A stretch of 64,000 nucleotides of DNA from contig CAWJAS010000001.1 in NCBI GenBank assembly GCA_963840935.1, positions 128,875-192,874 of the forward strand, in the 5' to 3' direction. How positions within the stretch are numbered: the first letter of the stretch is position 1; each line of letters starts with the position of its first letter. The notes below the pieces were generated by a model. That model was given only the letters and a program-made list of their open reading frames with translations, searched no databases and was not told where the DNA came from. Shown here piece after piece: positions 4,953 through 19,211 of the stretch. A program made the translations under genes and the position numbers. The stretch is from Candidatus Magasanikiibacteriota bacterium. Its GTDB lineage: Bacteria; Patescibacteriota; Patescibacteriia; Magasanikbacterales; GWA2-37-8.

Positions 4953-5095
4953 TTTTGCCTATGTCCGGTCATTCTAAATGGCACCCCAGTCATCAAAACC
5001 TTCGGTTTTGAGACGGGGCGAGACTCAGACATTAATTATTATTCCAATATATCCACTACATTCATTTGCCTATGTCCGGTCATTCTAAATGGCAC
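4953..5095. repeat. Two direct copies of a 31-bp sequence (TTTGCCTATGTCCGGTCATTCTAAATGGCAC) around an ~80-bp insert; the second copy is the true start of the yebC-family gene
   Basis: Copies at ~4955-4985 and ~5062-5095, identical by eye. Confidence 0.8.
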
Positions 5096-5797
5096 AATAT
5101 ACAAGCGAGGAAAGGAAAACAAGATGCTTTAAAAAGCAACGTTTTTTCAAAGCTTTCCAAAGTAATATCTGTTTCCGCTCGCGGGGGTAGTGACCCGGTT
5201 ATGAATTTTTCATTGCGTTTGGCCATAGAAAAAGCCAAATCAGCCGGCATGCCCAAAGACAATATTGATCGCGCGATAAAAAAAGGTGCCGGAGAAACCG
5301 GAGGCGCGCAGATGGAAGAAGTATTATATGAGGCTTATGGACCGGGTGGTGTTGCCATTATTGTCAAAGGAATTACCGATAACAAGAATCGAACTTTACA
5401 GGAAGTAAAACATATATTATCCAAAAATGGTGGTTCGCTTGGAAATGCCGGGGCGGTTCTTTGGATGTTTGAACAATTTGGTTTTACAACTGTTACTTCT
5501 GATACAATAGAAAAAATCGGCCGAGATGAATTAGAGTTGGCGTTGATTGATGCCGGTGCCGAAGATATTAAGAACGGCGATGAAAATATGGTTGAAATAA
5601 AAACAAAAGTTGAAAATTTCAAAAAAATAATGGATAAGCTAAAGGAATTAGAAATCGAGCCAAGAGAGTCCGGACTTATTTGGGAAGCTAAAGATAAGAT
5701 AGATGTGTCGGAAGATGTGCGGATGAAGCTTGAAAATATATTTTCGGAATTTGAATCCAATGACGATATTGATGATTGGTACACTAACGCTGAATAA
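5066..5797 (+). CDS. YebC/PmpR family DNA-binding transcriptional regulator
   Basis: N-terminus MSGHSKWHNIQARKGKQDALKSNVFSKLSK...NIDRAIKKG is the hallmark of the YebC/DUF28 family. Confidence 0.9.
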   Translation: MPMSGHSKWHNIQARKGKQDALKSNVFSKLSKVISVSARGGSDPVMNFSLRLAIEKAKSAGMPKDNIDRAIKKGAGETGGAQMEEVLYEAYGPGGVAIIVKGITDNKNRTLQEVKHILSKNGGSLGNAGAVLWMFEQFGFTTVTSDTIEKIGRDELELALIDAGAEDIKNGDENMVEIKTKVENFKKIMDKLKELEIEPRESGLIWEAKDKIDVSEDVRMKLENIFSEFESNDDIDDWYTNAE

Positions 5798-6337: not shown

Positions 6338-7177
6338 ATGGCCATCACGCACGAGCGAAAAGTCGAAAAATTTTATTCTCATGGTTCAAAAAGACGGTCG
6401 CAAATAGCCGGTGGTTTTTTATCGTTCGGTTATTGGGATAACGATACAAAAGATTATTATGAAGCAGCCGAAAAATTGGTAGATTTTTTTCTTTCCGAAG
6501 CTAACATAGATAATCCTGAAAATATTTTGAATGTTGCTTGCGGTTATAGCGCAGAATCATTTAGATTTTTTGAAACAATTAAGCCAAAGCAGATGCGCTG
6601 TATTGATATAACACAAGCGCACATCGATTATGCAAAAAATATTGCCAAAGAAAAAAATCTCGAAGATAGGCTCATATTTGAAAAAAAAGATGCCTGCCGG
6701 ACGGGTTATCCCGATAATTTTTTTAGCCATATTTTGGGAATTGAGGGACCGGCCCATTTTCGAACCAGAAAAGATTTTTTTCGTGAATGTTATCGTTTAC
6801 TGAAAGAAAAAGGCAAATTAATGATTACTGATATTATTTTTGACCCGACCGCCTCAAAAAAGAATTTTATATTGAATAAATTAACCGAATTGGGGTCGCA
6901 GAGATGGCACATGCCGAAAGAGAATTGGGCAAATATAGAAGGCTATTGCGAGCAACTTCGCGAGGCCGGGTTTAAGGTGGAAAAAGTATTAAAAATTGGC
7001 GATAAAGTTTTTCCGGCTTTTGCCAGATATAATACCCGAATTAAGTCAATTGTTCGCGGTGTTAAAACCAGAGGTTTTTTTATTGGGATAGGGCTTTCAT
7101 TCATTTCTTGGCTTTTGGGCTTTGGCTACAGGCATGGAGTGATTGACTATGTTTTTATAAAAGCCGAAAAAATTTAA
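6338..7177 (+). CDS. Class I SAM-dependent methyltransferase-like protein with C-terminal hydrophobic segment
   Basis: Motif-I-like ILNVACGYSAESF. Overall methyltransferase-fold spacing. Weak. Confidence 0.45.
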   Translation: MAITHERKVEKFYSHGSKRRSQIAGGFLSFGYWDNDTKDYYEAAEKLVDFFLSEANIDNPENILNVACGYSAESFRFFETIKPKQMRCIDITQAHIDYAKNIAKEKNLEDRLIFEKKDACRTGYPDNFFSHILGIEGPAHFRTRKDFFRECYRLLKEKGKLMITDIIFDPTASKKNFILNKLTELGSQRWHMPKENWANIEGYCEQLREAGFKVEKVLKIGDKVFPAFARYNTRIKSIVRGVKTRGFFIGIGLSFISWLLGFGYRHGVIDYVFIKAEKI

Positions 7178-7232
7178 TTTTACAATAAAAAACCGCCCGA
7201 ATATTTTCGAGCGGTTTTTATATTTTTTATTT

Positions 7233-7808
7233 TTAGTAATTTTCCGTCCAAACTTCAAAGTAAGCTTGAGGATGAAGGCATGACGGGCATTTTTCTAACG
7301 CTTTGTCTCCCTCATGCAAATAACCGCAATTTCGGCATTTCCAAATTATTTTATTATCTTTTACAAATACTTTTCCGCTTTCCAAATTTTCGTAAAGTTT
7401 CAAATAACGGGCCTCATGAGCTTTTTCAACCTTGGCGATATTTGTAAAAGCGTCGGCCACTTCTTTAAATCCTTCTTCTTCGGCAATTTTTGCGAATTCA
7501 GGATAAAGTTTTGTCCATTCTTCGTTTTCTCCTTCTGCCGCGGCTTTCAGGTTTTCCATGGTGGTGCCGATTTTACCGGCTGGGTACATGGCGGTAATTT
7601 CTACCATACCTCCCTCCAAAAATTTAAAAAATCTTTTGGCGTGCTCCTTTTCATTAAGAGCGGTTTCAGTGAATATGGCGCTCATTTGCTCAAGACCTTC
7701 TTTTTTTGCGACGCTGGCAAAGTAATCATAGCGCATTCTCGCCTGCGATTCGCCGGCAAAAGCTTTCAACAAGTTTTGCTCGGTTTTGGTGCCTTTTAGT
7801 GTAGCCAT
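7233..7808 (-). CDS. Rubrerythrin (ferritin-like diiron domain plus C-terminal rubredoxin-like CxxC...CxxC)
   Basis: [22 protein letters not shown]...[17 protein letters not shown]-terminal [20 protein letters not shown]. Confidence 0.9.
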
Positions 7809-7818
7809 AAAAAATTAA

Positions 7819-8307
7819 TTATTTAATATTATCTATTTTGTTTGTTTTGATAAAAGAAAACCAGTCTTTTCTGTCGATGAAAACTTCTCCAAGTATGGCG
7901 AATGGCAGAGTGACTAAAGTGACGATTAAAACCGTATTTATAGTAAAAATTTCGCCGGTAAGAATACTGATGGCAATTAAGTCTTCAACTACGCCCATTA
8001 CCATCCCAAAAATCATAAATTCCAAAAAAATTTCAAGATGCTTAATATATTTATTTTTACTAATTTTTGGAAGTAGATGTGTCCGATCGACAATTATTTC
8101 CCCGATTATTGCGAAAGGAATGGCAACTAAAATGGCGACGTAAACGGCTCGGGCATTGATGGTATAATCGGTCGCATAATAAATGGCGATCAAATCTTCA
8201 ATTACGCTTATAGCAATGCCAAAAATTAAGAAACCCAAAAAAATTTTTAATGATTTTTTGAGCGCCATTTTTAATTTAACCCTTTTAATTTTCAAAAAAA
8301 TACACAC
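7819..8307 (-). CDS. Small membrane protein made of two tandem homologous 2-TM halves
   Basis: First half IFLGFLIFGIAISVIEDLIAIYYATDYTINA...PFAIIGEIIVDR. Second half IFLEFMIFGMVMGVVEDLIAISILTGEIFTINT...PFAILGEVFIDR. Confidence 0.5.
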   Translation of the reverse strand: MCIFLKIKRVKLKMALKKSLKIFLGFLIFGIAISVIEDLIAIYYATDYTINARAVYVAILVAIPFAIIGEIIVDRTHLLPKISKNKYIKHLEIFLEFMIFGMVMGVVEDLIAISILTGEIFTINTVLIVTLVTLPFAILGEVFIDRKDWFSFIKTNKIDNIK

Positions 8308-8377
8308 AAATTCAAAGATTTATTTATTATTTAGTTCTTTAATATTATCAAAAAATACGGGTTTTGGCCAGTATTAC

Positions 8378-9523
8378 TTATTTTTTAATATATATTCTCC
8401 CATCTCCTTTATCTACGGTAAATGAATGGTGTTTGAGTCCGGTTGTGATGTCTTCCATTTCTTCTTCAAAATTCACAATGACGTTCGCATAAGGAGCGCT
8501 CACAACAATGCCTTTTTCGAATTCTCTAAAATAAGCATTGTTTTTTTGATAATATTTGCCTTTGGGGTCGCCCAAGTCGGCGTCATATTCCGGGAACCAC
8601 CATGCCTGCCCATGGTCGCGGGGTCCAAAATCATAAGTAAAATAAGTATTATCGTTAAGCAGACTCAAAGTCAAACCAAGCCTCATTTTCTTTAGATCTT
8701 TTTGGCCGGTGTCGTCGGTGTCAACGGCATAAATAATAAAATGACTGTCGTCAGATGCTTTTAAACCGTCATCAAAATTTGCTTTTAATTGATTACCCAA
8801 TAAATTTTCCATCAAATAACCGTCAAAATATTCTTTGAACTCATCAATGTCATAAATATCTTTGCCGGCGTTGAAAACAACTAATTTATTATTGGTATTG
8901 AGCTGTTTTATTTTTGCAAAAATATTTTTTGTCGTGTCTAGCCATTCGTCATTACTGATTGATTCGGGACACCACCATTGTTTTTCCGTAATCATATCGA
9001 CAATAATTCCATCGTGTTGCGGTTGTTTTAGAACGTTGTCGTAGAATGAAACTATAAGCTCAGTCCATTTTTTATTTCTTAAGTCCATCGCATAAATTTC
9101 TTCATGCCCCCATTTGTCAGAAGCCCATCCAAACGCGCATCGTTCACCGTTAGGCTTGTGTAAATACATGTCTTCCGTTATTTCAATTGGTTTTTTTTTA
9201 TCATAATTTGCAACAGTCGTAAGAAATGACATCCAATCTTTATTATCCCATGTCCAATTTACAGATAATCCGGCCAAAAGTTTAGCTTCAGGATTGGTTG
9301 TTTTAATTTCATCCGCCTCTTCTTGCGTGAACCATCCGGACATAACAAGCGAATATGGTTTTTTGCTCGATATTATTTCCTCTTTTTTTGCTAACCAACT
9401 GGCAATTTTGGGGAAGTCAGCTTTTTTTGCCTCTGGCGATTGAGTTTGTTCTTGTTCGCATCCACATAAAAAAAATACTCCAATAATCGTCCATGTTAAA
9501 AATATTTTTTTTATTTTGGTCAT
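8378..9523 (-). CDS. Putative lipoprotein, unknown function
   Basis: Signal peptide with lipobox-like FLCGC. Trp/Asp-rich body. No confident family call. Confidence 0.5.
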   Translation of the reverse strand: MTKIKKIFLTWTIIGVFFLCGCEQEQTQSPEAKKADFPKIASWLAKKEEIISSKKPYSLVMSGWFTQEEADEIKTTNPEAKLLAGLSVNWTWDNKDWMSFLTTVANYDKKKPIEITEDMYLHKPNGERCAFGWASDKWGHEEIYAMDLRNKKWTELIVSFYDNVLKQPQHDGIIVDMITEKQWWCPESISNDEWLDTTKNIFAKIKQLNTNNKLVVFNAGKDIYDIDEFKEYFDGYLMENLLGNQLKANFDDGLKASDDSHFIIYAVDTDDTGQKDLKKMRLGLTLSLLNDNTYFTYDFGPRDHGQAWWFPEYDADLGDPKGKYYQKNNAYFREFEKGIVVSAPYANVIVNFEEEMEDITTGLKHHSFTVDKGDGRIYIKK

Positions 9524-10401: not shown

Positions 10402-10465
10402 GTTTTTACTTTTTATTTTGTTAGTTAAATAATAATCGTCTATTAAATCCGGGCAATATTATCCA

Positions 10466-10552
10466 CAATGGGCGCGCTTATCCAATCGTTTCGCCCGGGC
10501 ACGAACTTTATGCTCGGGCGGGATGTTGGATAATCGTTGTTCGGCGATGTCG
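10466..10552. repeat. attC-like imperfect palindromic cassette-boundary repeat, family member 1
   Basis: acaATGGGCGCGCTTATCCAATCGTTTCGCCCGGGCACGAACTTTATGCTCGGGCGGGATGTTGGATAATCGTTGTTCGGCGATGT. Shares ends and GC-rich inner hairpin with copies at 15284-15348, 15790-15880 and 11649-11762. Confidence 0.7.
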
Positions 10553-10762
10553 TCGAATGTATCTGTATATTCGAATTTTTTTGCTTCTCTTTCATATTAT
10601 ATCAATAAAGAGTAAAGAAGCAAAAAATTGGGTGGAGTAAGCGAATGTATTGTTCTTCAGGCGTTAGCCTGCCGGCGATTTAGCCAGCAAAAAAGTGCTT
10701 TTGGGGAATTGGGGAAGCCATATTTCTGGCTTCCCCGTGTTGTGAATTGGATCATAGATTTG

Positions 10763-10945
10763 TTACTCCTCCTTTTTTTTCTTTTGCTCTAATTCCGGAA
10801 TGAGCGAAACATTTGCGTTTATGCCACAGAAAGGGCAACCATCTTCGTTTGGAGAAAATGTACGTCCACAACAATGACACATATGGCTGTCTGGTGTGAT
10901 AGCTTCGGTCGCTATCATATTTAACAATTGTTTAATCGCATGCAT
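10763..10945 (-). CDS. Small zinc-ribbon protein
   Basis: CHCCGRTFSPNEDGCPFCG. The CCGTGTTGTGaattgg core motif (10735-10750) immediately precedes its stop, as for other cassette genes. Confidence 0.4.
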   Translation of the reverse strand: MHAIKQLLNMIATEAITPDSHMCHCCGRTFSPNEDGCPFCGINANVSLIPELEQKKKKEE

Positions 10946-11240
10946 ACCAATCCTCCTTTTTTGATTTCATGAATCCAATTCCCTAAAAGTATTTTTTTAA
11001 AGAGCAATGTTTTTGATAGTGTATCCCGGCATGCAAAGTTCGCTTTGTAGATTTATTGACTATTGTTTGGACACCCGAATACTATTTTAGCTGGTTTTCG
11101 TTAAAATTGACACTTAATTAAGAAAAGCGAGTTTAGGGAAAAGGCGAGCCGAGCCTTTTCCCGGATATTAGGCGTTATGCGAAGGTGGGCGCACCGTCCT
11201 CGTTGCGTTTTCTCTCATCTTATTTTTTGCGGTCGTGGAC

Positions 11241-11269
11241 TTGACAGAATAGCTGTTATCCACTATATT
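11241..11269 (+). promoter_or_regulatory. Near-consensus sigma70-type promoter: TTGACA, 17 bp spacer, TATATT
   Basis: ttgacagaatagctgttatccactatatt. Followed by RBS AAAGGAGG and ATG at 11368. Confidence 0.6.
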
Positions 11270-11367
11270 AAAATGTCAATAGTTGAGAAATCATCTTTAA
11301 ACAAAAAGAGTGATTTCTCGTTATCGCGAGGATCCGCTCTTTAACAAAACCCAAAGGAGGCGTAAAA

Positions 11368-11559
11368 ATGAAGTTCGATGAAGCAAAAATGTTGGCTTCA
11401 CAGTGTGTGAAAGCTGCCAAGGAAGCTTGGTATGCGAATTTCGAAAATACCTATCACTCAGGCGATCTCAATAGAGAGGCTGTTGGCAGAATTGCAAATA
11501 CGCTTCTCGAGCGTTGTCTGGGGTCAGAGGGTGTGGAGAGACCCTCCAAAACTGAATAA
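11368..11559 (+). CDS. Small hypothetical protein (63 aa) in a self-contained promoter-RBS-ORF-terminator unit, opposite to the array orientation
   Basis: Strong promoter. RBS aaaggagg 8 nt upstream. Terminator immediately downstream. Confidence 0.5.
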   Translation: MKFDEAKMLASQCVKAAKEAWYANFENTYHSGDLNREAVGRIANTLLERCLGSEGVERPSKTE

Positions 11560-11576
11560 GAGCATATTCGGTTCAA

Positions 11577-11612
11577 ACGCAAGGCGTTGGCTATACAGTC
11601 GACGCCTTTTTT
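11577..11612 (+). terminator. Rho-independent terminator
   Basis: AAGGCGTtggctatacagtcgACGCCTTTTTTTAT. Confidence 0.7.
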
Positions 11613-11648
11613 TATGAGCAAAAAATAATTTGAAAGAAAATGTAGCCG

Positions 11649-11762
11649 AATGGGCGCGCTTATCCAATGAGTGTCGAAATTTGGGCCGAAGACAATTGAC
11701 ACTCATTTGAAATATAAATGTGTCAATTTTCTCTGAGCCAGATATGCCGTGTTGTGCGATGT
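11649..11762. repeat. attC-like cassette-boundary repeat (variant with different inner hairpin AATGAGTGTC...GACACTCATT)
   Basis: Starts aATGGGCGCGCTTATCCAAT. Ends GATATGCCGTGTTGTGCGATGT directly before the stop of the 11769-12146 gene. Confidence 0.65.
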
Positions 11763-11768
11763 TTAATT

Positions 11769-12146
11769 TCAATTCCGTAACGCTGATAAAGCACTGTCTA
11801 GTTTTTCAATCAGGTCTTCTTTGTCTGTATATTCTATAAAATTTTTACATACTACTTTCAGAGAACCAGATATTTTTGAACCTTTACGATAAATGCAGAT
11901 AATTGGACGCCCAAAAGAATCAGCCCAACCCAACTCAATCCCCAATCCAGTAGCAGGAAATGAAACTTCCGCAACCATTACATCGCACTTTTTTATAATG
12001 TCTTTCGTGACGAAATCACTTGCTTCTTGATAAATTTCATGTGGCAATATTATCTCATTTTCAGAGTTGAGCTTACTTTCTCTGATAGGTAAATATAATT
12101 CTTCCTTATAATTCAATTCTTTTGAGTGTCCAATGTATATTTTCAT
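11769..12146 (-). CDS. Nucleoside 2-deoxyribosyltransferase-like (flavodoxin-like fold) protein
   Basis: MKIYIGHSKELNY... N-terminus and size typical of the Nuc_deoxyri_tr2-like family. Weak. Loosely similar to the 15349-15762 product. Confidence 0.4.
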   Translation of the reverse strand: MKIYIGHSKELNYKEELYLPIRESKLNSENEIILPHEIYQEASDFVTKDIIKKCDVMVAEVSFPATGLGIELGWADSFGRPIICIYRKGSKISGSLKVVCKNFIEYTDKEDLIEKLDSALSALRN

Positions 12147-12164
12147 AAATAGTAATTAAAATTA

Positions 12165-12252
12165 AATTTCGTACAACGTATCGGCATATCTGATGTTGCG
12201 TAATAATATTGGCGAAACGTAGTGTAGCTAGATATACGCTGTTATCGGATAT
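12165..12252. repeat. attC-like cassette-boundary repeat
   Basis: aatttCGTACAACGtatcggcatatctgatgttgcg...GATATACGCTGTTATCGGATAT. Ends ~12 bp before the stop of the 12269-12760 gene. Confidence 0.55.
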
Positions 12253-12268
12253 AATCAAAATTTGATAC

Positions 12269-12760
12269 TCATTTGGGGCTAATTTTATTCAAAACCATTT
12301 TTAATGTAACAGGTCGATACCTGTTTTCTGGATATTTTTTTAATCTCTTTTTTACAAAGCCGCAAGACTCATATGCTTTAATAGCACGAATATTTTCAGG
12401 TCTGACTTCTAAATATGATTTTGAATACCCAAGCTTGCCAAATCCTAATGATAAGACCTTTTTGATTGCTTTCGTGCCAATTCCCTTATTCCAATACTCT
12501 TTTTCACCAATGACTATTGTAATTTCAAACGTATTTGAATCTTTATGCATTAATGCGAGATGGCCTATTGCTTTTTCATCATATTGAATAATGTAATGAT
12601 GATCTTTTTTGCTCTCAAACATTTTGAAAAAATATCCAGGGAGTTTTTCATCGAATTCATCAAAATTACCGCTGGTTAGAGCAATTAAATCATGATCTTT
12701 CCACCACTTGAGAAAGAGAGGAAGGTCTGTTTTTTTGATTTTTCTGAGCTTAATAGACAT
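12269..12760 (-). CDS. GNAT family N-acetyltransferase
   Basis: EKEYWNKGIGTKAIKKVLSLGF...AYESCGF. Confidence 0.8.
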   Translation of the reverse strand: MSIKLRKIKKTDLPLFLKWWKDHDLIALTSGNFDEFDEKLPGYFFKMFESKKDHHYIIQYDEKAIGHLALMHKDSNTFEITIVIGEKEYWNKGIGTKAIKKVLSLGFGKLGYSKSYLEVRPENIRAIKAYESCGFVKKRLKKYPENRYRPVTLKMVLNKISPK

Positions 12761-12812
12761 TTGTTAGTATAAAATTAGCCCCAATTACTTTAAATTAAAT
12801 TTTGATTATTTC

Positions 12813-12835
12813 CGATAAACGCTGTTAGGCGATGT
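12813..12835. repeat. Cassette-boundary core motif containing a perfect integron core-site heptamer GTTAGGC
   Basis: cgataaaCGCTGTTAGGCGATGT, 12 bp before the stop of the 12847-13341 gene. Confidence 0.55.
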
Positions 12836-12846
12836 AATAAAAAATA

Positions 12847-13341
12847 TTAGAAATCTGTTTCGCTTGGATCTATTGGTGCTGAAACAATCTTTGCCCTTTC
12901 TTGTTCAGTGATAAAGCTGCCTTCTTTGGGGACAATAGTCGCAAAGGGAGCGATGTGAACATCATCTGTTCCATTATCCAATCTCCAAAAACCGTACACT
13001 ACCCTGTGGCCAGGGTCTGTCACAGCCGCGTGTGCAATTTCATGTTCCATTAATTTATCAATGATATTTTTTTTACCACCAGCATCGATGAGGAATTTCC
13101 TCATCTCTTCAGCGGTATCAAATTCGTAGCAATCATCCTCATTCAGAATCGTTTCATATTTTTTTCGCAGTTCCTCACTTCTACCAGCTATTTCTTTTTT
13201 ATCTTTTATTCCAGCTTGGATAATTTCGCGCGTAATCGAAGTACGTTCACGAAGCCATCTTTTATAGTCATCAAGTTTTGTTTTTGGTTTTTTCATTTGT
13301 CTTGTTTCAGCATCCGTTTGTTCGATATGTGAGTGCTCCAT
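12847..13341 (-). CDS. Hypothetical protein with HExxH motif (MEHEIAHAAV), putative zinc metallopeptidase-like
   Basis: HEIAH motif. No other family assignment. Confidence 0.45.
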   Translation of the reverse strand: MEHSHIEQTDAETRQMKKPKTKLDDYKRWLRERTSITREIIQAGIKDKKEIAGRSEELRKKYETILNEDDCYEFDTAEEMRKFLIDAGGKKNIIDKLMEHEIAHAAVTDPGHRVVYGFWRLDNGTDDVHIAPFATIVPKEGSFITEQERAKIVSAPIDPSETDF

Positions 13342-13639
13342 ATAATTATTGAGGTTATTTTTTATTATGTCGCCGAATGTGTCCGAGTGTGCGAAGTTGG
13401 CTTTTCGGATTTATTGATTACTATTTTAGCTGGTTTTCGCTTAAATTACCACCAAACAAAGAAAGGCGAATTTGGGAAAAAGTTGAGCCGAGCAATTTTC
13501 CTTTTATCCCTTGTTATATGACCCGAACGGAATGAAATGGAGTGAGAGCGCATCGTGGCGCGACTGGAAGGAGCGAATTTTGCCAAACAAATAATTACCT
13601 TATTATTAGAGCTCTTTTGAAATTTTTCGGTGGGTGGGT

Positions 13640-13668
13640 TTGACATTTTTAACTGGATGTGATTTAAT
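13640..13668 (+). promoter_or_regulatory. Sigma70-type promoter: TTGACA, 17 bp spacer, TTTAAT
   Basis: ttgacatttttaactggatgtgatttaat. RBS caggagaaagcc before ATG at 13717. Confidence 0.5.
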
Positions 13669-13716
13669 TTACTATTCCGGCTCTGGTAGTTAGCCGGATA
13701 AACACAGGAGAAAGCC

Positions 13717-14094
13717 ATGCTTTACGCAATTGTTCTAGGGGCAGCGTCAGTGTCGGTAATTGTTGTTCTTTCATTTTTCTGCAACAAAATAGTGGAACGG
13801 CTAGAGTTAGGCCTGTCTTTATTCTACCATCCCTCGTGGATGATGCTGCGTCCATTAAATACACCTAGAAAAGTAATGATTTTTTTCTTTCGGTGGTTGC
13901 CAACGGCGCTATATTTAGTCGCGATAGTATTGTATGGTATCTTCAACCCATCAGAGGGGCTTGGAGACAAATTAATCCTTATCGGCGTTTTTTTTGCGTC
14001 GCAGGTGTTGGTTTCGTGTATTCTGTTGAGGGCTCATACGCACATTCTGGTCAAGAAGTACAGTAAATTAATTTCAAGTAGGTGCAAGCAGTAA
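13717..14094 (+). CDS. Hypothetical 4-TM membrane protein in a second self-contained reverse-oriented unit
   Basis: Hydrophobic segments. Own promoter and terminator. Confidence 0.5.
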   Translation: MLYAIVLGAASVSVIVVLSFFCNKIVERLELGLSLFYHPSWMMLRPLNTPRKVMIFFFRWLPTALYLVAIVLYGIFNPSEGLGDKLILIGVFFASQVLVSCILLRAHTHILVKKYSKLISSRCKQ

Positions 14095-14111
14095 AAGAGC
14101 CAAGGTTCCAT

Positions 14112-14145
14112 GCCCGCATAGATTAACATCTGCGGGCTTTTTTTA
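14112..14145 (+). terminator. Rho-independent terminator
   Basis: GCCCGCatagattaacatctGCGGGCTTTTTTT. Confidence 0.75.
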
Positions 14146-14414
14146 AAAAATTTTAAAAAAGAGCTTAATTCAAATTGTCAAAATTATTTGTTTGGCAAAA
14201 TTGCGAATAACAGTCAGGAATATCCGATGTTTTTGCGACCAACGGAAGCAAAAATATGGGTGAGATAATTTTTTATTCCTTATTATAATTTATATTGAAA
14301 AATTATTGAACCAGATATTCCTTGTTATCTGATGTAAATTTTTATCTTCGTCTTTGATGAACTTAATCTTGTTTTCGCACTAAAAATTTTTGTTTTGCCG
14401 AATGGCAAAACAGA

Positions 14415-15191
14415 TTATTTGGGGGTATTTATTATTTTTTTTAATTGTTCAATGTGTAATTCTTTTATTTCTTCAAATTCTTGTGAGGTATTTTTACCAT
14501 CCTTCATGATTGAAAATGTTTCAAGTAATATCGTACCGTCATATCCAATTGAATTCAGCTTGGAAATAATTCCATCGACTTTGGCTTGATTATCATAGAA
14601 TAAATGATCAAAATCTCCAATATTATCATGAAGATGAATATGTCCAATTTTGCCGCTAAAAATATCAATAAACTTATTCAACTCAGAGATTCTGTTGGCG
14701 TGTCCAATATCAAGGGTGATATTTGCATTAGGAATTTTTTCCAATAATTTCAAAATATTGTCGGCGGAATTATATGGCGCGCTTGAAACATTTTCAATCA
14801 ATAACTGCATGTTATTTTTTTGCAAAACAATATTTATTTCATTAAAGATTTCAGCATTTTCCTCTGTGTTCAAATTTTGATGCGGGTGAATCGTAATTTT
14901 TTTTGCACCCAAATCTCTCAATATCTCGATATTTTTTACGATTTCATCAAATTTAACAATATCCCAATGAATATGTCCTAAAACTTCAAAGTTTGTAGTC
15001 GCATTTTTTAAGTCGAAAAAAATATCATCGATGGTTTTTAGCACTTCTGGCTGAATAGTGATTTCCGTAAAATCAAAATATTGTTTTGCAAATTCAATTT
15101 CTGTGAGTAGGTCTCCTCTAAAACCCGACATATATCCAAATTTCATATTTTCGTTATTAAAAAAATAAAAAATATCTCTAAATAATTCCAC
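14415..15191 (-). CDS. Sugar phosphate isomerase/epimerase, xylose isomerase-like TIM barrel (AP endonuclease 2 fold)
   Basis: ITIHPHQN, DIGHANRISE, GHIHLHDN, metal-ligand pattern of the family. Confidence 0.75.
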   Translation of the reverse strand: MELFRDIFYFFNNENMKFGYMSGFRGDLLTEIEFAKQYFDFTEITIQPEVLKTIDDIFFDLKNATTNFEVLGHIHWDIVKFDEIVKNIEILRDLGAKKITIHPHQNLNTEENAEIFNEINIVLQKNNMQLLIENVSSAPYNSADNILKLLEKIPNANITLDIGHANRISELNKFIDIFSGKIGHIHLHDNIGDFDHLFYDNQAKVDGIISKLNSIGYDGTILLETFSIMKDGKNTSQEFEEIKELHIEQLKKIINTPK

Positions 15192-15283
15192 CTTTGACGG
15201 AAAACTTATAAAAAAACAAATTTTCGTCCTCGTTCAACGCACCAGAGCCTGAAATTATTACAAAGATAAAAATTTATTTCACA

Positions 15284-15348
15284 TAATGGGTCGCGGTTAT
15301 CCCATCGTCCCGCCCGGGCACGAACCTCATATTCGGTGTTGTACGATG
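15284..15348. repeat. attC-like cassette-boundary repeat, deletion variant lacking the right inner arm
   Basis: cataATGGGTCGCGGTTATCCCATCGTCCCGCCCGGGCACGAACCTCATATTCGG|TGTTGTACGATGT. Ends at the stop of the 15349-15762 gene. Confidence 0.7.
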
Positions 15349-15762
15349 TTAAATAATTTTTTTCAAATCACCATTAATAATAATCGGCTTAACTGCCTCA
15401 ATTTCAGTTTTACAATAAGGCATTTCGGGAATTGGGTTTAGCATGAAAACCTTTTGATTTAACACGTAGGCAAAACCGATTTCCATTAAAGTATTGCCGC
15501 CTACATAATTTTGGACGCCATTTTTATCAAGATTCAAAACAAGCACGGCATCTGCTCCTTGCATCATACGCCAAAATTCACGGATGGCGTCCATATTGTA
15601 TTTTTGGTGAAGTTTGATTTCTTCAATTTCGGAATCGGTTTTGCCCACCATTGCCTTATGCAAATCCGTGACAAATGCGTCATGCCCCAATTCCCGAAGT
15701 TTTTCACGATACTCAAGCATTTTATCGGTAAATTGCATTGAGCCGATTATTCCTATTTTCAT
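15349..15762 (-). CDS. Nucleoside 2-deoxyribosyltransferase-like protein
   Basis: MKIGIIGSMQFTDKMLEYREKLRELGHDAF...LVLNLD. Flavodoxin-like pattern. Confidence 0.45.
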   Translation of the reverse strand: MKIGIIGSMQFTDKMLEYREKLRELGHDAFVTDLHKAMVGKTDSEIEEIKLHQKYNMDAIREFWRMMQGADAVLVLNLDKNGVQNYVGGNTLMEIGFAYVLNQKVFMLNPIPEMPYCKTEIEAVKPIIINGDLKKII

Positions 15763-15789
15763 AAAAGATTTGAAAAAAATTATTTAATT

Positions 15790-15955
15790 TCGTACAATGG
15801 GTCGCGGTTATCCCATCGTCCCGCCCGGGCACGAACCTCATGTTCGGGCGGGATGTGGGATAACCGCTGTTATGCGATGTCGCGCGAGCAACTCGCAGAA
15901 CAGCGGGCACCGCGACCCATTATGCAAAATCGCTCACGCGATTTTGCATAATGTT
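15790..15955. repeat. Full-length attC-like palindrome plus additional nested hairpins; gene-less cassette-like segment
   Basis: cgtacaATGGGTCGCGGTTATCCCATCGTCCCGCCCGGGCACGAACCTCATGTTCGGGCGGGATGTGGGATAACCGCTGTTATGCGATGT. Then GCGCGAGcaaCTCGC, an inverted copy CCGCGACCCATT, and a perfect hairpin ATGCAAAATCGCtcacGCGATTTTGCAT. Confidence 0.7.
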
Positions 15956-16315
15956 TTTGGACATGCGAAGTTAAAAAACCCCGCCACCTTGACTTAATTG
16001 TATCAAAAAGAGCGGGGTTTTTCAATTTGGGAGGGGGCTTTCGAGGAAAGCCCGAACCGCATGTCCAGTGTTATGTGATTTATACTTTTCCTTTTATCCG
16101 TTAGGGTCGCTTTTCTATTTTAGGGCAAATTTGGTTTTGTCTTTCTTTGAGCTGAGAGGTTGGAGCGGATGCCCAAAAGTAAAGACGCATTATTGGAAGT
16201 TAGTAAGAAAAACGTCCGAAATTGAAGAAGGGGTCGCAACATCTGTTGCGACCCCTTTGGGGTTTTGCTGGCCTCCCGAGTTTCCTCAGCTTGCCAGACG
16301 GCGTAGCCGATCTCG

Positions 16316-16753
16316 TCACTCCACGACGGTCGTTTGACCGCGGCCAAACTTGCCATGGTTCCAGCCCGCACCGTTGATGTCAGTCACGGAGTGAACGTGT
16401 ATGGAGAGCAATTGGTCGAAGGCTTGGTCTGTATCGGGGTTCCCCGTGCGGTACTCGATCCACATGGGCTGGCCGACCGGCACATCATGAAAGGTCTCTG
16501 GAATATTGCCGTAACACCCTTGTCCGAAGGAATACTGAGCGACAGTGCCATCCGGCTTCTCCATGAGAAAGGTGTAACGCGACGGTTCGTGCATCAGGAC
16601 GCGAGAAACACCATCCATGCGCTTGGTCTCGGTCCAATCTATTGCACCAAGGGTCCGGTAGACGAAGGCCATGAGACCTAAGGACACAACCAGGAGAATG
16701 GAGACGGACAGGATGATCAAAGGAACATGAAACTTTTCCCTAATACGCTTCAT
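16316..16753 (-). CDS. Hypothetical N-terminally membrane-anchored protein; visibly GC-rich relative to flanks
   Basis: N-terminal TM segment. Codons are G/C-ending. Two consecutive hairpins downstream at ~16228-16262. Confidence 0.5.
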   Translation of the reverse strand: MKRIREKFHVPLIILSVSILLVVSLGLMAFVYRTLGAIDWTETKRMDGVSRVLMHEPSRYTFLMEKPDGTVAQYSFGQGCYGNIPETFHDVPVGQPMWIEYRTGNPDTDQAFDQLLSIHVHSVTDINGAGWNHGKFGRGQTTVVE

Positions 16754-16989
16754 TGTAATTTCCTCCGTGTGTGGTGAGGTCGCTTTATCGTGTAAAGCGA
16801 CACATAATTATATCACAAAAAAACGACCCTGTCAAGAGTCGCGCATCAAAAATCTTCTTAATTTAGCCAAAATTTAGAAAATCGTCCCGCCGAGAATACG
16901 GCGGGTTACCATATTCTCCCCTCTATAAAAAATGAAAAATCAAATTTGCCCAATATAGAAAAGCGAAAGGGCATTCGGCCCTTAAAAGG

Positions 16990-17101
16990 AAAAGTGTATT
17001 TCACATAACGTTTCGGGATATCCGACGTTTCGCCACTTCCATTAAAAAATAATTTAGTGTGGCGAAATGTGGCTTTAGCCCTTGCGGATATCCCGTGTTG
17101 T
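16990..17101. repeat. attC-like imperfect palindrome with perfect CGGATATCCG palindromic boxes
   Basis: cacataACGTTTCGGGATATCCGACGTTTCGCCAC...GTGGCGAAATG...GCGGATATCCCGTGTTGTGCGAC. Ends ~30 bp before the stop of the 17133-17690 gene. Confidence 0.7.
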
Positions 17102-17132
17102 GCGACCCGAAGGGCTTGAGTTGCAAAAACTT

Positions 17133-17690
17133 TTATTCCTTATTTTTGTTTTGATTTCTATTAAAAATAGCCATGGATAAAAAGTCATAAAACTTTCCTT
17201 TGTAAAAAACTTCATCTTTCATCTTGCCTTCGATAACAAAGCCTAAAGATTTATACAAGTTAACTGCTGGAGTATTATCTTTGATGACGCCTAAATTAAT
17301 CTTATGAAGTTTTTGTTTTGTAAATCCATAATCGATTATCCATTCCATGGCAATTTTTCCAATTCCCTTACCGCGATAGTCGTCTTCTCCAATAGCAATA
17401 AACAAATCTGCATTTTTATTCGGTTTACTAATGTTTGATAGTCCTATAAATCCTATTGGCTTAGAATTATCACAAATAGTGAAAAACTTTTTGTTTTTAG
17501 CTTTTTTATAATTAGCAAACCATTCCTTTTCTTTTTGCAGATTTGTTTTTTGCCCCAATTCATCACCAATAAACTTATTGACATTGGGATTGCTCAACCA
17601 CTTGACGCGGCAAGGGATATCTTTTTCTAAATGTTTTCTTATTTTTATCATAAAGAAATCAAAACAAATTAAATTTAAAAGTTTTTGCAA
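17133..17690 (-). CDS. GNAT family N-acetyltransferase (RimJ/RimL-like); first cassette next to the recombinase remnant
   Basis: KVKWLSNPNV, DYRGKGIGKIAMEWIIDYGF, LYKSLGF. Confidence 0.75.
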   Translation of the reverse strand: MQKLLNLICFDFFMIKIRKHLEKDIPCRVKWLSNPNVNKFIGDELGQKTNLQKEKEWFANYKKAKNKKFFTICDNSKPIGFIGLSNISKPNKNADLFIAIGEDDYRGKGIGKIAMEWIIDYGFTKQKLHKINLGVIKDNTPAVNLYKSLGFVIEGKMKDEVFYKGKFYDFLSMAIFNRNQNKNKE

Positions 17691-17877
17691 TTTCGCACAA
17701 CTACCTTTATCATGACTAGTGGTAAAAACCGCTAAAATATGATAAAATTTTTGAGAAATTGGGGTTATAGGCGACGAAGGTGAGAGAAAAGCAAATTGAT
17801 TTGCTTTTCCGAGCCAAGGAGCTTATATACTGTGTATATAGCCCCTGGGGGTATAACGGATTAATATTATCAAGAAT

Positions 17878-18311
17878 TATGAAGGAGGGCAACACTTTTG
17901 ATAATTTGGCTAGGGAATTGCGTATTCGCAATTACAGCAAAAAAACCGCTAATTCATATATTCGGTATAATCAGGAGTTTTTGCGGTTTTGCGAAAAAGA
18001 CCCGCGTGAAGCAACGGCCGAGGATATAAAGAATTATTTGGATTATTTAGCTCAAGAATGGTCGTGGAAGCAGATTAACCGAATCAACTATACAAAAAAT
18101 CGTGGTTTCAACAGCCAAAAAAGCGGGGATTGCCAAAAATGTGACACCGCATACCTTGCGCCATTCGTTTGCCACGCATTTGCTAGAAAATGGCACGGAT
18201 ATACGGTATATTCAAGAATTGTTGGGGCATGCCAAGCTTCAGACCACCCAAATCTACACTCATGTGGCAAATAATAATTTAAAAAATATTGTGAGCCCGC
18301 TCGATGTATGA
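17878..18311 (+). pseudogene. intI-like: Integron-integrase-like tyrosine recombinase remnant: N-terminal SAM-like domain fused out of frame to the C-terminal catalytic tail; ~180 codons of the central domain are missing
   Basis: N-terminal part [61 protein letters not shown] parallels IntI1 [30 protein letters not shown]...EVEAFLSWLANE. After a frame change near 18050, [61 protein letters not shown]...VSPLDV matches the IntI/Xer C-terminus, including the HxxR and catalytic Tyr regions and the SPLD ending. Confidence 0.7.
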
Positions 18312-18430
18312 ATGGGCGTGGTTGGATTCCCGCTTTCGCGAGAATGACAAGACGATAATTATTGTTGACAAAAAACTTTCTATAAGATTAAATAGGTTCA
18401 ACAAACCGTTCTTTTAACCAGGAGAAAAAA

Positions 18431-18652
18431 ATGAAGTACGCAGTGTCGTATCGATTGCTTACGCATGACAGCGATGGCCCGATACCGGAAAGCAGGGAAT
18501 ACGAGGCGGAAAGTCTGAAAGAGGCATACGCCAAAGGAGAAAGGATAGCTCAAGACCGCGCTGCCCAAATCAGGAAGGATGGCGGAGTCGCCGAGGTGTC
18601 GAACATCCACATCAAGCGGTTTCACAAGCGCGCCTCAAAAAAATCCCGATAG
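18431..18652 (+). CDS. Small hypothetical protein (73 aa), GC-rich, with strong RBS
   Basis: aggagaaaaaaATG. Terminator at 18683-18715 (AGCCGCCAGCCGTGGCGGCTTTT). Confidence 0.4.
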   Translation: MKYAVSYRLLTHDSDGPIPESREYEAESLKEAYAKGERIAQDRAAQIRKDGGVAEVSNIHIKRFHKRASKKSR

Positions 18653-18749
18653 TTCTTACGATATCTGACCCCTATACTGTACAATCAAGCCGCCAGCCGT
18701 GGCGGCTTTTGCTTTCTTAAAAACAGTATGATACGATTTTATAAAATAT

Positions 18750-19211
18750 ATGAAAGAAAAATTTGTTTTGGTTTTGCCTGATATCAGAAGCGCGCATAAT
18801 GTGGGCGCTATGTTTCGGACCGCGGATGGCGCGGGTGTAGAAAAAATATATTTATGCGGATATACCGCTCGTCCGCCTCATCCGCAATTAGACAAAGTAT
18901 CTTTGGGCGCTGAAAAATGGATAAAATGGGAATATTACCGTCAAACATGGCGCGCGCTTAAAGAATTGAAGAAAAAAGGGTATAATATAGTGGCGCTGGA
19001 ATTAACCGAAGGCAGTCAAAATATTTTTAAGTGGAAGTCAAAGTTTCCTTTGGCCTTGGTGGTTGGCAATGAAAAAACCGGCGTGACAAAAAAATTATTA
19101 AAATATTGTGATAGTGCCGTTCACATCCCCATGTTCGGCAAAAAAAGCAGTTTGAATGTTAGTGTGGCCACCGGCATTGCCGTTTATCAAATTGGCCAAC
19201 AAATAAAATAA
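18750..19211 (+). CDS. SpoU/TrmH-family RNA 2-prime-O-methyltransferase (TrmL-like)
   Basis: HNVGAMFRTADGAG, VVGNEKTGV, SLNVSVATGIAVY SPOUT motifs. Confidence 0.8.
   Translation: MKEKFVLVLPDIRSAHNVGAMFRTADGAGVEKIYLCGYTARPPHPQLDKVSLGAEKWIKWEYYRQTWRALKELKKKGYNIVALELTEGSQNIFKWKSKFPLALVVGNEKTGVTKKLLKYCDSAVHIPMFGKKSSLNVSVATGIAVYQIGQQIK

Follow-up and report, generated by a model that had tools for sequence, protein, structure and literature searches.

Two repeats as probable relics of the recombination site of an integron-like array in a Candidatus Magasanikiibacteriota bacterium

Introduction

The closest described counterpart of the element considered here is the attC site of integrons, especially in its long, branched form, e.g., the Vibrio VCRs. 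One attC site is found at the 3′ end of each cassette, where inverse-core and core boxes bound an imperfect palindrome that is maintained by compensatory change and not by its sequence. The crossover, G/TT, is situated beside a conserved attI, next to a divergently read tyrosine recombinase, the integrase. The attC type tracks the source of the cassettes (PMC8352920). The DNA examined in this study, referred to as the window, is a stretch of 64,000 nt from Candidatus Magasanikiibacteriota bacterium, a member of the candidate phyla radiation (CPR), and corresponds to positions 128,875-192,874 of the forward strand of contig CAWJAS010000001.1 (assembly GCA_963840935.1). All coordinates are positions in this 64-kb window and refer to the plus strand unless stated otherwise. 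The element in question is a repeat present as module A (11011-11180) and module B (13372-13519) within an array of small gene units.

In an earlier note on this DNA, the repeat was described as a structured module with a covarying hairpin, and a link with toxin-antitoxin units, a small RNA, or a recombination or regulatory site was proposed. The recombination site, then an alternative, is the reading favored here. Modules A and B are probably two diverged copies of the recombination site of the array, likely inert, that are owned by two cassettes with a reversed ORF (open reading frame). What looked like a new regulatory RNA would then have an ordinary explanation as two worn copies of a site that the array carries throughout.

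The array resembles an integron in that every cassette has a single site at its 3′ end, in its terminal boxes, which end in AAC or start with GTT, and in an imperfect palindrome in which pairing is kept by compensatory change. It also has a G/TT crossover beside a conserved attI, a divergently read tyrosine recombinase next to it, and site subtypes common to cassettes of shared origin, as reported for attC (PMC8352920). Unlike in an integron, the partner integrase is without the I2 domain of approximately 43 residues and scores below the TIGR02249 cut-off. The array sites differ from canonical attC in a conserved internal motif, AAT(A/T)TGGG(C/T)GRAG, between two internal hairpins and in a length that reaches ~200 nt, and modules A and B have in addition lost the complementarity of their arms.

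A second point of comparison is provided by Xer/dif module arrays, such as the pdif modules of Acinetobacter plasmids and IMEX elements. These share with the present locus an Xer-like recombinase without I2 (the best structural match is 5hxy), a conserved site beside the recombinase gene, and modules in series. However, dif and pdif are double-stranded cores of 28 bp without a long hairpin, whereas the sites of this array are palindromes of 70-200 nt with covarying stems, all face the same direction, and each accompany one ORF.

Recombination Sites of the Array

The array extends over ~10460-17700 and consists of approximately 11 units in which a single ORF is paired with a single palindromic repeat; the minus strand carries nine of these ORFs. 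The only plus-strand units within the array are those of a 63-aa and a 125-aa ORF, in agreement with the earlier note; a third such unit is located just outside (18431-18652). Unit boundaries, recognizable as a GTTRTRY box followed by GATGT, occur once per ORF. Twenty boundary repeats with lengths of 70-203 nt were extracted from the window and from the related loci L013, L014 and L023.

Along the plus strand, a site begins with ATTTC, a left box RYAYAAY, a 5-nt spacer, an L arm (..ATATC..) and GA(Y/A)GTT. In the middle part, hairpin 1, whose loop has 3-80 nt, is followed by the motif AAT(A/T)TGGG(C/T)GRAG and hairpin 2. The right part is formed by G(A/T)AGCC, the L′ arm and the right box GTTRTRY, after which GATGT follows. 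The members in the window, given from left box to right box, are site a (10463-10547), site b (11645-11757), site c (12171-12247), the degenerate site d (~12789-12836), site e (14205-14331), the truncated site f (15276-15350), site g (15792-15877), site i (15946-16076) and site h (17003-17104). Sites a, f, g and u5 make up a second and simpler class, in which the site is a single long palindrome.

An alignment of 15 sites from the window, L013, L014 and L023 was made without A or B and is the basis of the covariance model R1. In this alignment the R and L arm helices are 89% paired and 10 of their 17 pairs show changes on both sides, a result reached by none of 500 shuffles. These compensatory changes in the arm helices indicate that the sites are true hairpin-forming elements that work like attC. 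Since the integrase is without I2, they are named attC-like and are not filed as canonical attC. An attC-like site would fold as a hairpin in single-stranded DNA; the count of G.T pairs (21 on the plus strand vs 11 on the minus strand) weakly fits folding of the plus, or bottom, strand. Model R1 finds such sites in other genomes.

Some further observations were made on the sites. The internal motif stands between the two internal hairpins in most of them (e.g., 14253 and 16024, and in L013, L014 and L023), and the GG(C/T) of the motif seems to form pairs with (G/A)CC in the leader of the right arm. At L014 ~6595-7262, L023 ~5093-5690 and L023 ~856-1570, the halves of a site are separated by a whole minus-strand ORF of 171, 128 and 141 aa, respectively, and these genes appear within the hairpin 1 or hairpin 2 region of the site. 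A perfect TTGACA-17-TATAAT is present at L023 ~915-948 on the plus strand, antisense to the array, in the hairpin-1 loop of a site, and is followed by a short hairpin-rich stretch and a T tract.

Modules A and B as Probable Members of the Site Family

The similarity of the two segments, first seen in the earlier note, is real: an 86-nt core is 79% identical (blastn E 3.7e-15). The homology is wider than was then described, covering 170 nt in A and 148 nt in B with an overall identity of ~72% and a sharp stop on both sides. The 21-mer TACTATTTTAGCTGGTTTTCG (A, 11080-11100; B, 13419-13439) occurs exactly twice in the window, at 11080 and 13419, vs 0.01 occurrences expected by chance. In module A, 20 nt at 11060-11079 are an insertion or a local duplication. 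The two modules are the only copies within the window.

Both modules occupy a boundary slot of the array. Module A lies between the 60-aa and 63-aa ORFs and module B between the 164-aa and 125-aa ORFs, with the site orientation kept, and no other site is present in these two intervals. The right boxes, GTTATGC in A (11174-11180) and GTTATAT in B (13513-13519), conform to the family GTTRTRY. They are preceded by right arms GGATATTAGGC (A, 11163-11173) and TTTTATCCCTT (B, 13502-13512), for which the family consensus is CAGATATnCCGT. On the left, the start of B, GCCGAAT (13372-13378) followed by G, is that of site b; the left box of A, TTTTGAT (11011-11017), is poor.

The internal order of the family is also present in both copies. 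The GAAGTT-type junction, CAAAGTT in A (11034-11040) and CGAAGTT in B (13392-13398), is followed by a long hairpin 1 that is closed by a stem. In A this stem is CGCTTT/AAAGCG (11041-11046 and 11124-11129); in B it is GGCTTTTC with GAAAGGC (13399-13406 and 13461-13467), paired as GCTTTTC/GAAAGGC. The central motif, AGTTTAGGG in A (11130-11138) and AATTTGGG in B (13469-13476), leads into hairpin 2 and the right arm. With MAFFT, A and B align end to end with the family, and their lengths of 170 and 148 nt are within the family range. They are assigned to a long-loop “GAAGTT” subtype of the attC-like site.

All other sites of the window are recovered by model R1. Among sequences that had not yet been recognized as sites, module B is its best match (13367-13525, model positions 1-98, the whole model; 14.8 bits, E 0.47), with match ends that are exactly the predicted ones. 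A site in a related locus that R1 had not seen, L023 1943-2131, scores 46.6 bits (E 4e-9) and links the modules to the family, as the core of B is 67% identical to L023 1968-2068 over 101 nt (E 5e-4). The three sequences are collinear from box to box; the hairpin-1 stem is shared by the L023 site (CGGCTTT(T)C with GAAAGCCG), whose hairpin 2 has 13 bp. In the reverse direction, the two modules and the L023 site were combined in a profile, and its four best non-self matches at E < 1 are all other sites (L029 6167, L023 856, L023 5093 and L029 5322-5525). The forward and reverse tests are in agreement, weakly so for the modules themselves.

The hairpin described in the earlier note would be the distal hairpin of the recombination site. 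Its description holds for module A, where a perfect 10-bp stem, GGGAAAAGGC/GCCTTTTCCC (11136-11162), folds as DNA with -11.0 kcal/mol (z -4.3). In module B (13474-13501) the stem has a 2-nt bulge and, at -3.8 kcal/mol (z -0.6), is no better than shuffles. The change from GGC/GCC to TTG/CAA, which had been taken as compensatory, is not so column by column, as the register in B is shifted by one base, and two sequences are too few to establish covariation. The conserved loop is not a mark of the module either, since GAGCC recurs, as GAGCC, GAACC or GTAGCC, in the right arms throughout the site family. For the family as a whole, selection on structure does hold, through its compensatory arm-helix changes. 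Folded over their full length, the modules do not surpass shuffles (z -1.7 to +0.3).

Cassette Map and Orientation

The orientation of the array can be read from its junction with the integrase side. At 17695-17716, GCACAAC meets TACCTTTATCATGAC; the right side of this junction is conserved in eight related loci and the left side is unrelated cassette DNA. In these loci the common sequence runs from TACCTTTATCAT to the integrase start, and divergence sets in immediately to the left of the preceding AAC. The junction is the attI crossover, which on the minus strand is placed between G and TTGTGC. As the junction is conserved in eight loci and the crossover falls at the left box, the minus strand is the top strand of the array. 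This strand has the same sense as most cassette ORFs and is divergent from the integrase.

Many assembled contigs of the relatives break at the attI junction. Some of the contig break points in the Logan assemblies, considered as crossover markers, are due to repeats or coverage. Box complementarity across each cassette was set aside as a test of orientation, as both orientations predict the same comparisons.

On the top strand, a cassette starts at the left box of the site with higher coordinates and ends at the left box of its own. We infer that each module is the 3′ terminal site of a cassette with a reversed ORF. The cassette of the 63-aa ORF (11017-11650, minus strand) would end in module A, and that of the 125-aa ORF (13378-14210, minus strand) in module B. 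On this reading, the module is found upstream of the promoter of the reversed ORF because it is the 3′ terminal site, which is downstream on the top strand. The same reading settles how the cassettes are laid out and which way the array runs. The plus (bottom) strand may have been the one that folded in an active ancestor, with the integrase then cutting beside the AAC/GTT boxes.

The earlier note had placed a promoter, a ribosome binding site, a small ORF and a terminator after each module, and all were found in place. The 63-aa ORF (11368-11559) is preceded by the promoter TTGACA-17-TATATT (11241-11269, 11 of 12 matches) and the Shine–Dalgarno sequence AAAGGAGG (11353-11360), and is followed by a terminator at 11581-11613. 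The 125-aa membrane ORF (13717-14094) has the promoter TTGACA-17-TTTAAT (13640-13668), the Shine–Dalgarno sequence CAGGAGAAAG (13705-13714) and a terminator at 14113-14144. The module is, as had been stated, a real and structured repeat tied to the two reversed units. The shared site subtype and the same build, i.e., a sigma-70-type promoter, a Shine–Dalgarno sequence and a terminator, point to a common source, and the two self-transcribed reversed cassettes probably share one. The subtype is not tied to reversal, since the related site in L023 closes a cassette with an ORF of normal orientation.

The 63-aa protein is real, having nine homologs, the best with 68% identity (E 5e-21). Its family is characterized by the motif CVKxAKxAW..NF..SGDxNRxAIGxIANTLL, with C13, A17, W21, G32, D33, G40 and A43 invariant. 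It is predicted to form a two-helix hairpin (pLDDT 82), for which the PDB gave no informative match. Homolog searches with the 125-aa protein and with the 164-aa ORF returned only the queries themselves, and exact look-ups of neighboring ORFs returned only the same genome.

Probable Decay of the Two Modules

A number of results weigh against the assignment of A and B to the site family. The left-right arm duplexes of A and B amount to -6.1 and -4.3 kcal/mol (z +0.7 and +0.8), where most sites have -12 to -25. As the arms do not pair above chance, the palindrome that defines the family is absent. Of the 10 L pairs, 4-6 are formed in A and B, wobbles included, as read off the family alignment. 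Model R1 has no match to module A at E < 10 and gives B a borderline score; the poor scores of both are explained by the unpaired arms. Profiles of the arms alone are weak as well (B left, E 0.14; B right, E 0.76; A right, E 3.9).

The pattern of conservation is a further point against the assignment and is hard to reconcile with simple decay. Between A and B, 29 of 50 columns are conserved in the arms vs 80 of 102 in the centre (Fisher p 0.012), and the perfect run of 21 nt has p ~0.035. A working site would show better conserved arms; the reverse is seen, which leaves room for a second role of the centre. The ownership of the modules by the two cassettes is inferred through the attI argument, and neither cassette was seen as an independently mobile copy. 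No further copy of the module was recovered from genome, metagenome, viral, plasmid and phage collections with a strict pattern. Scans of the genome and metagenome collections with this exact pattern (TAGCTGGTTTTCG, a gap of 35-55 nt, GAGCCGAGC) gave only chance matches in coding DNA (L001-L003), and viral contigs, plasmids and phages had no module match.

The surrounding platform shows signs of decay, with an internal deletion in the integrase, a truncated site f and a degenerate site d. The reading of A and B as decayed sites fits this context. With the integrase broken and the arms of both modules unpaired, the modules are probably inert relics.

Alternative Explanations

The best surviving alternative, unlikely on the present evidence, is that a site-derived module has gained a new role through its centre (~11041-11135 in A and 13399-13470 in B, with the 21-mer). 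Cassettes read against the array would then be served by the centre as promoter, small RNA or insulator. In one version, a plus-strand transcript would begin after TACTAT and end at the hairpin; in another, a minus-strand restart promoter, with its TAAAAT inside the 21-mer, would drive the next cassette. This would account for the better conservation of the centre over the arms (p 0.012), and module A does contain TTGACT-18-TACTAT on the plus strand and GTGTCA-18-TAAAAT on the minus strand. Another related L023 site, with a perfect TTGACA-17-TATAAT in its hairpin-1 loop (~915-948), offers a parallel. Both copies also stand beside the only two reversed cassettes, for which the chance is estimated as ~4/55 for randomly placed pairs of similar sites. 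However, the −35 element is lost in B, where the spacing is changed by the 20-nt indel, and the strong hairpin of A has no U tract whereas the U tract of B goes with a weak hairpin. The 21-mer is kept at only 10 of 21 bases in the L023 relative, there is no Rfam match, and the whole-module folds are not above shuffles. The statistics also come from two sequences, with segments picked after the data had been viewed. In full, this alternative describes an undescribed class of three-way-junction sites on a CPR integron-like platform without I2, with arms that decayed and a centre recruited as promoter, small RNA or insulator; in this form, too, it is doubtful.

The small RNA or regulatory module of the earlier note received no backing of its own. 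Small RNAs and intrinsic terminators in intergenic repeats have in common with module A a GC-rich hairpin, but the hairpin is weak in B and neither copy combines a promoter with a strong hairpin and a U tract. A search of Rfam at the gathering threshold and up to E 10 left the modules and their surroundings without a match.

In large chromosomal integrons, toxin-antitoxin cassettes are typically reversed and bring their own promoters. The two units of this array could accordingly be toxin-antitoxin or stabilizing modules, as was first suggested, with the repeat as a part of their control region. They resemble the reversed toxin-antitoxin cassettes of sedentary chromosomal integrons in that the ORF opposes the array and has a strong promoter and a terminator of its own. 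Nevertheless, each cassette holds a single ORF, no partner gene is seen in either, and neither the 63-aa nor the 125-aa ORF has a match in Pfam, NCBIfam or PADLOC. The two-helix hairpin of the 63-aa protein is without a structural match and the 125-aa protein without a homolog. The proposal is unsupported on these grounds and is considered quite improbable.

Somewhat less probable still is a 5′ leader or riboswitch-like element of the minus-strand ORFs that lie next to the modules (60 aa, 10763-10945; 164 aa, 12847-13341). Each module is indeed located 30-70 nt upstream of the start of such an ORF. This position is already accounted for by the order of the cassettes, as all other cassettes also have a site there. 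The two ORFs are unrelated and the 164-aa ORF has no homolog; Rfam has no match and the minus-strand folds are not significant.

Chance similarity or a simple recent duplication with its flanks, for which it can be said that only two copies are known, is refuted by the blastn E-value, the near-zero expectation of the 21-mer, an identity of only ~72% and flanks that are unrelated.

Two further candidates were rejected. A coding function was discarded, as the short ORFs of the modules are in no common frame and a stop in A corresponds to open sequence in B. A group II intron remnant or MITE was discarded since conserved intron ends, inverted termini or a target duplication are not found in both copies.

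The Integrase and the Integron-like Platform

The integrase gene of the window is a remnant with an internal deletion (17879-18274, plus strand; 131 aa vs 273 aa in relatives). Relatives that are 96-98% identical have an intact tyrosine recombinase of 273 aa at the same place; in L006, the intact gene is at 112-933. When compared with VchIntIA (2a3v), this protein matches in two pieces, residues 14-172 and 194-271 of the query, with approximately 43 residues missing. By this comparison, the integrase is without the I2 (additional) domain, the defining feature of integron integrases. It scores 239 bits with TIGR02249, below the cut-off of 265, and is above the cut-off of NCBIfam NF040815. Its best match among solved structures is the archaeal XerA (5hxy), and its likeness to XerA is equal to its likeness to IntI4.

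The I2 helix is held to be the innovation by which integron integrases became able to recombine single-stranded DNA (PMC7790495). An array of strongly covarying hairpin sites with an Xer-like integrase without I2 could bear on the origin of integrons, and the integron-like platform is more interesting than the module itself. No paper on integrons in CPR bacteria was found in a literature search.

All relatives have a conserved palindrome (GGTTATAGCCCC..GGGGTATAAC) shortly before the start of the integrase. In the window it is split by a 71-nt insertion (17767-17837) with a TATAG repeat at its flanks. Together with the internal deletion of the integrase, this insertion suggests that the platform has been inactivated in the genome of the window. 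Counterparts of the platform (10460-18274) are present in the CPR (Magasanikbacteria-like) loci L006, L013, L014, L023, L026, L029 and L033. By the source names of the integrase homologs, the host of the window is placed close to Candidatus Magasanikbacteria.

Other Features of the Array

The cassette of a 145-aa ORF is bounded by inverted repeats of ~90 nt (16070-16158 and 16916-17009) that extend the terminal boxes inward. The same repeat frame encloses a different ORF of 290 aa in L013 (~8300-9440), as if the gene had been swapped within a conserved cassette frame. At 15787-16082, a tandem composite is formed by a simple-palindrome site, a conserved spacer of ~65 nt and a GAAGTT-type site, with no ORF between; a similar one is found at L023 4944 to ~5230. 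A region of the composite type is also seen at 10463-10658, where site a is followed by a weak extra site (10552-10658) that scores 12.6 bits with R1.

The third self-contained plus-strand unit is found just beyond the array, in an insertion of ~450 nt (18313-18760) between the integrase remnant and the SpoU gene. The insertion, which L006 does not have, carries a TTGACA at ~18366, a Shine–Dalgarno sequence, a 73-aa ORF (18431-18652) and a terminator. Its first bases, GAATGGGCGTGGTTGGATTCCC, are similar to the left arm of simple-palindrome sites.

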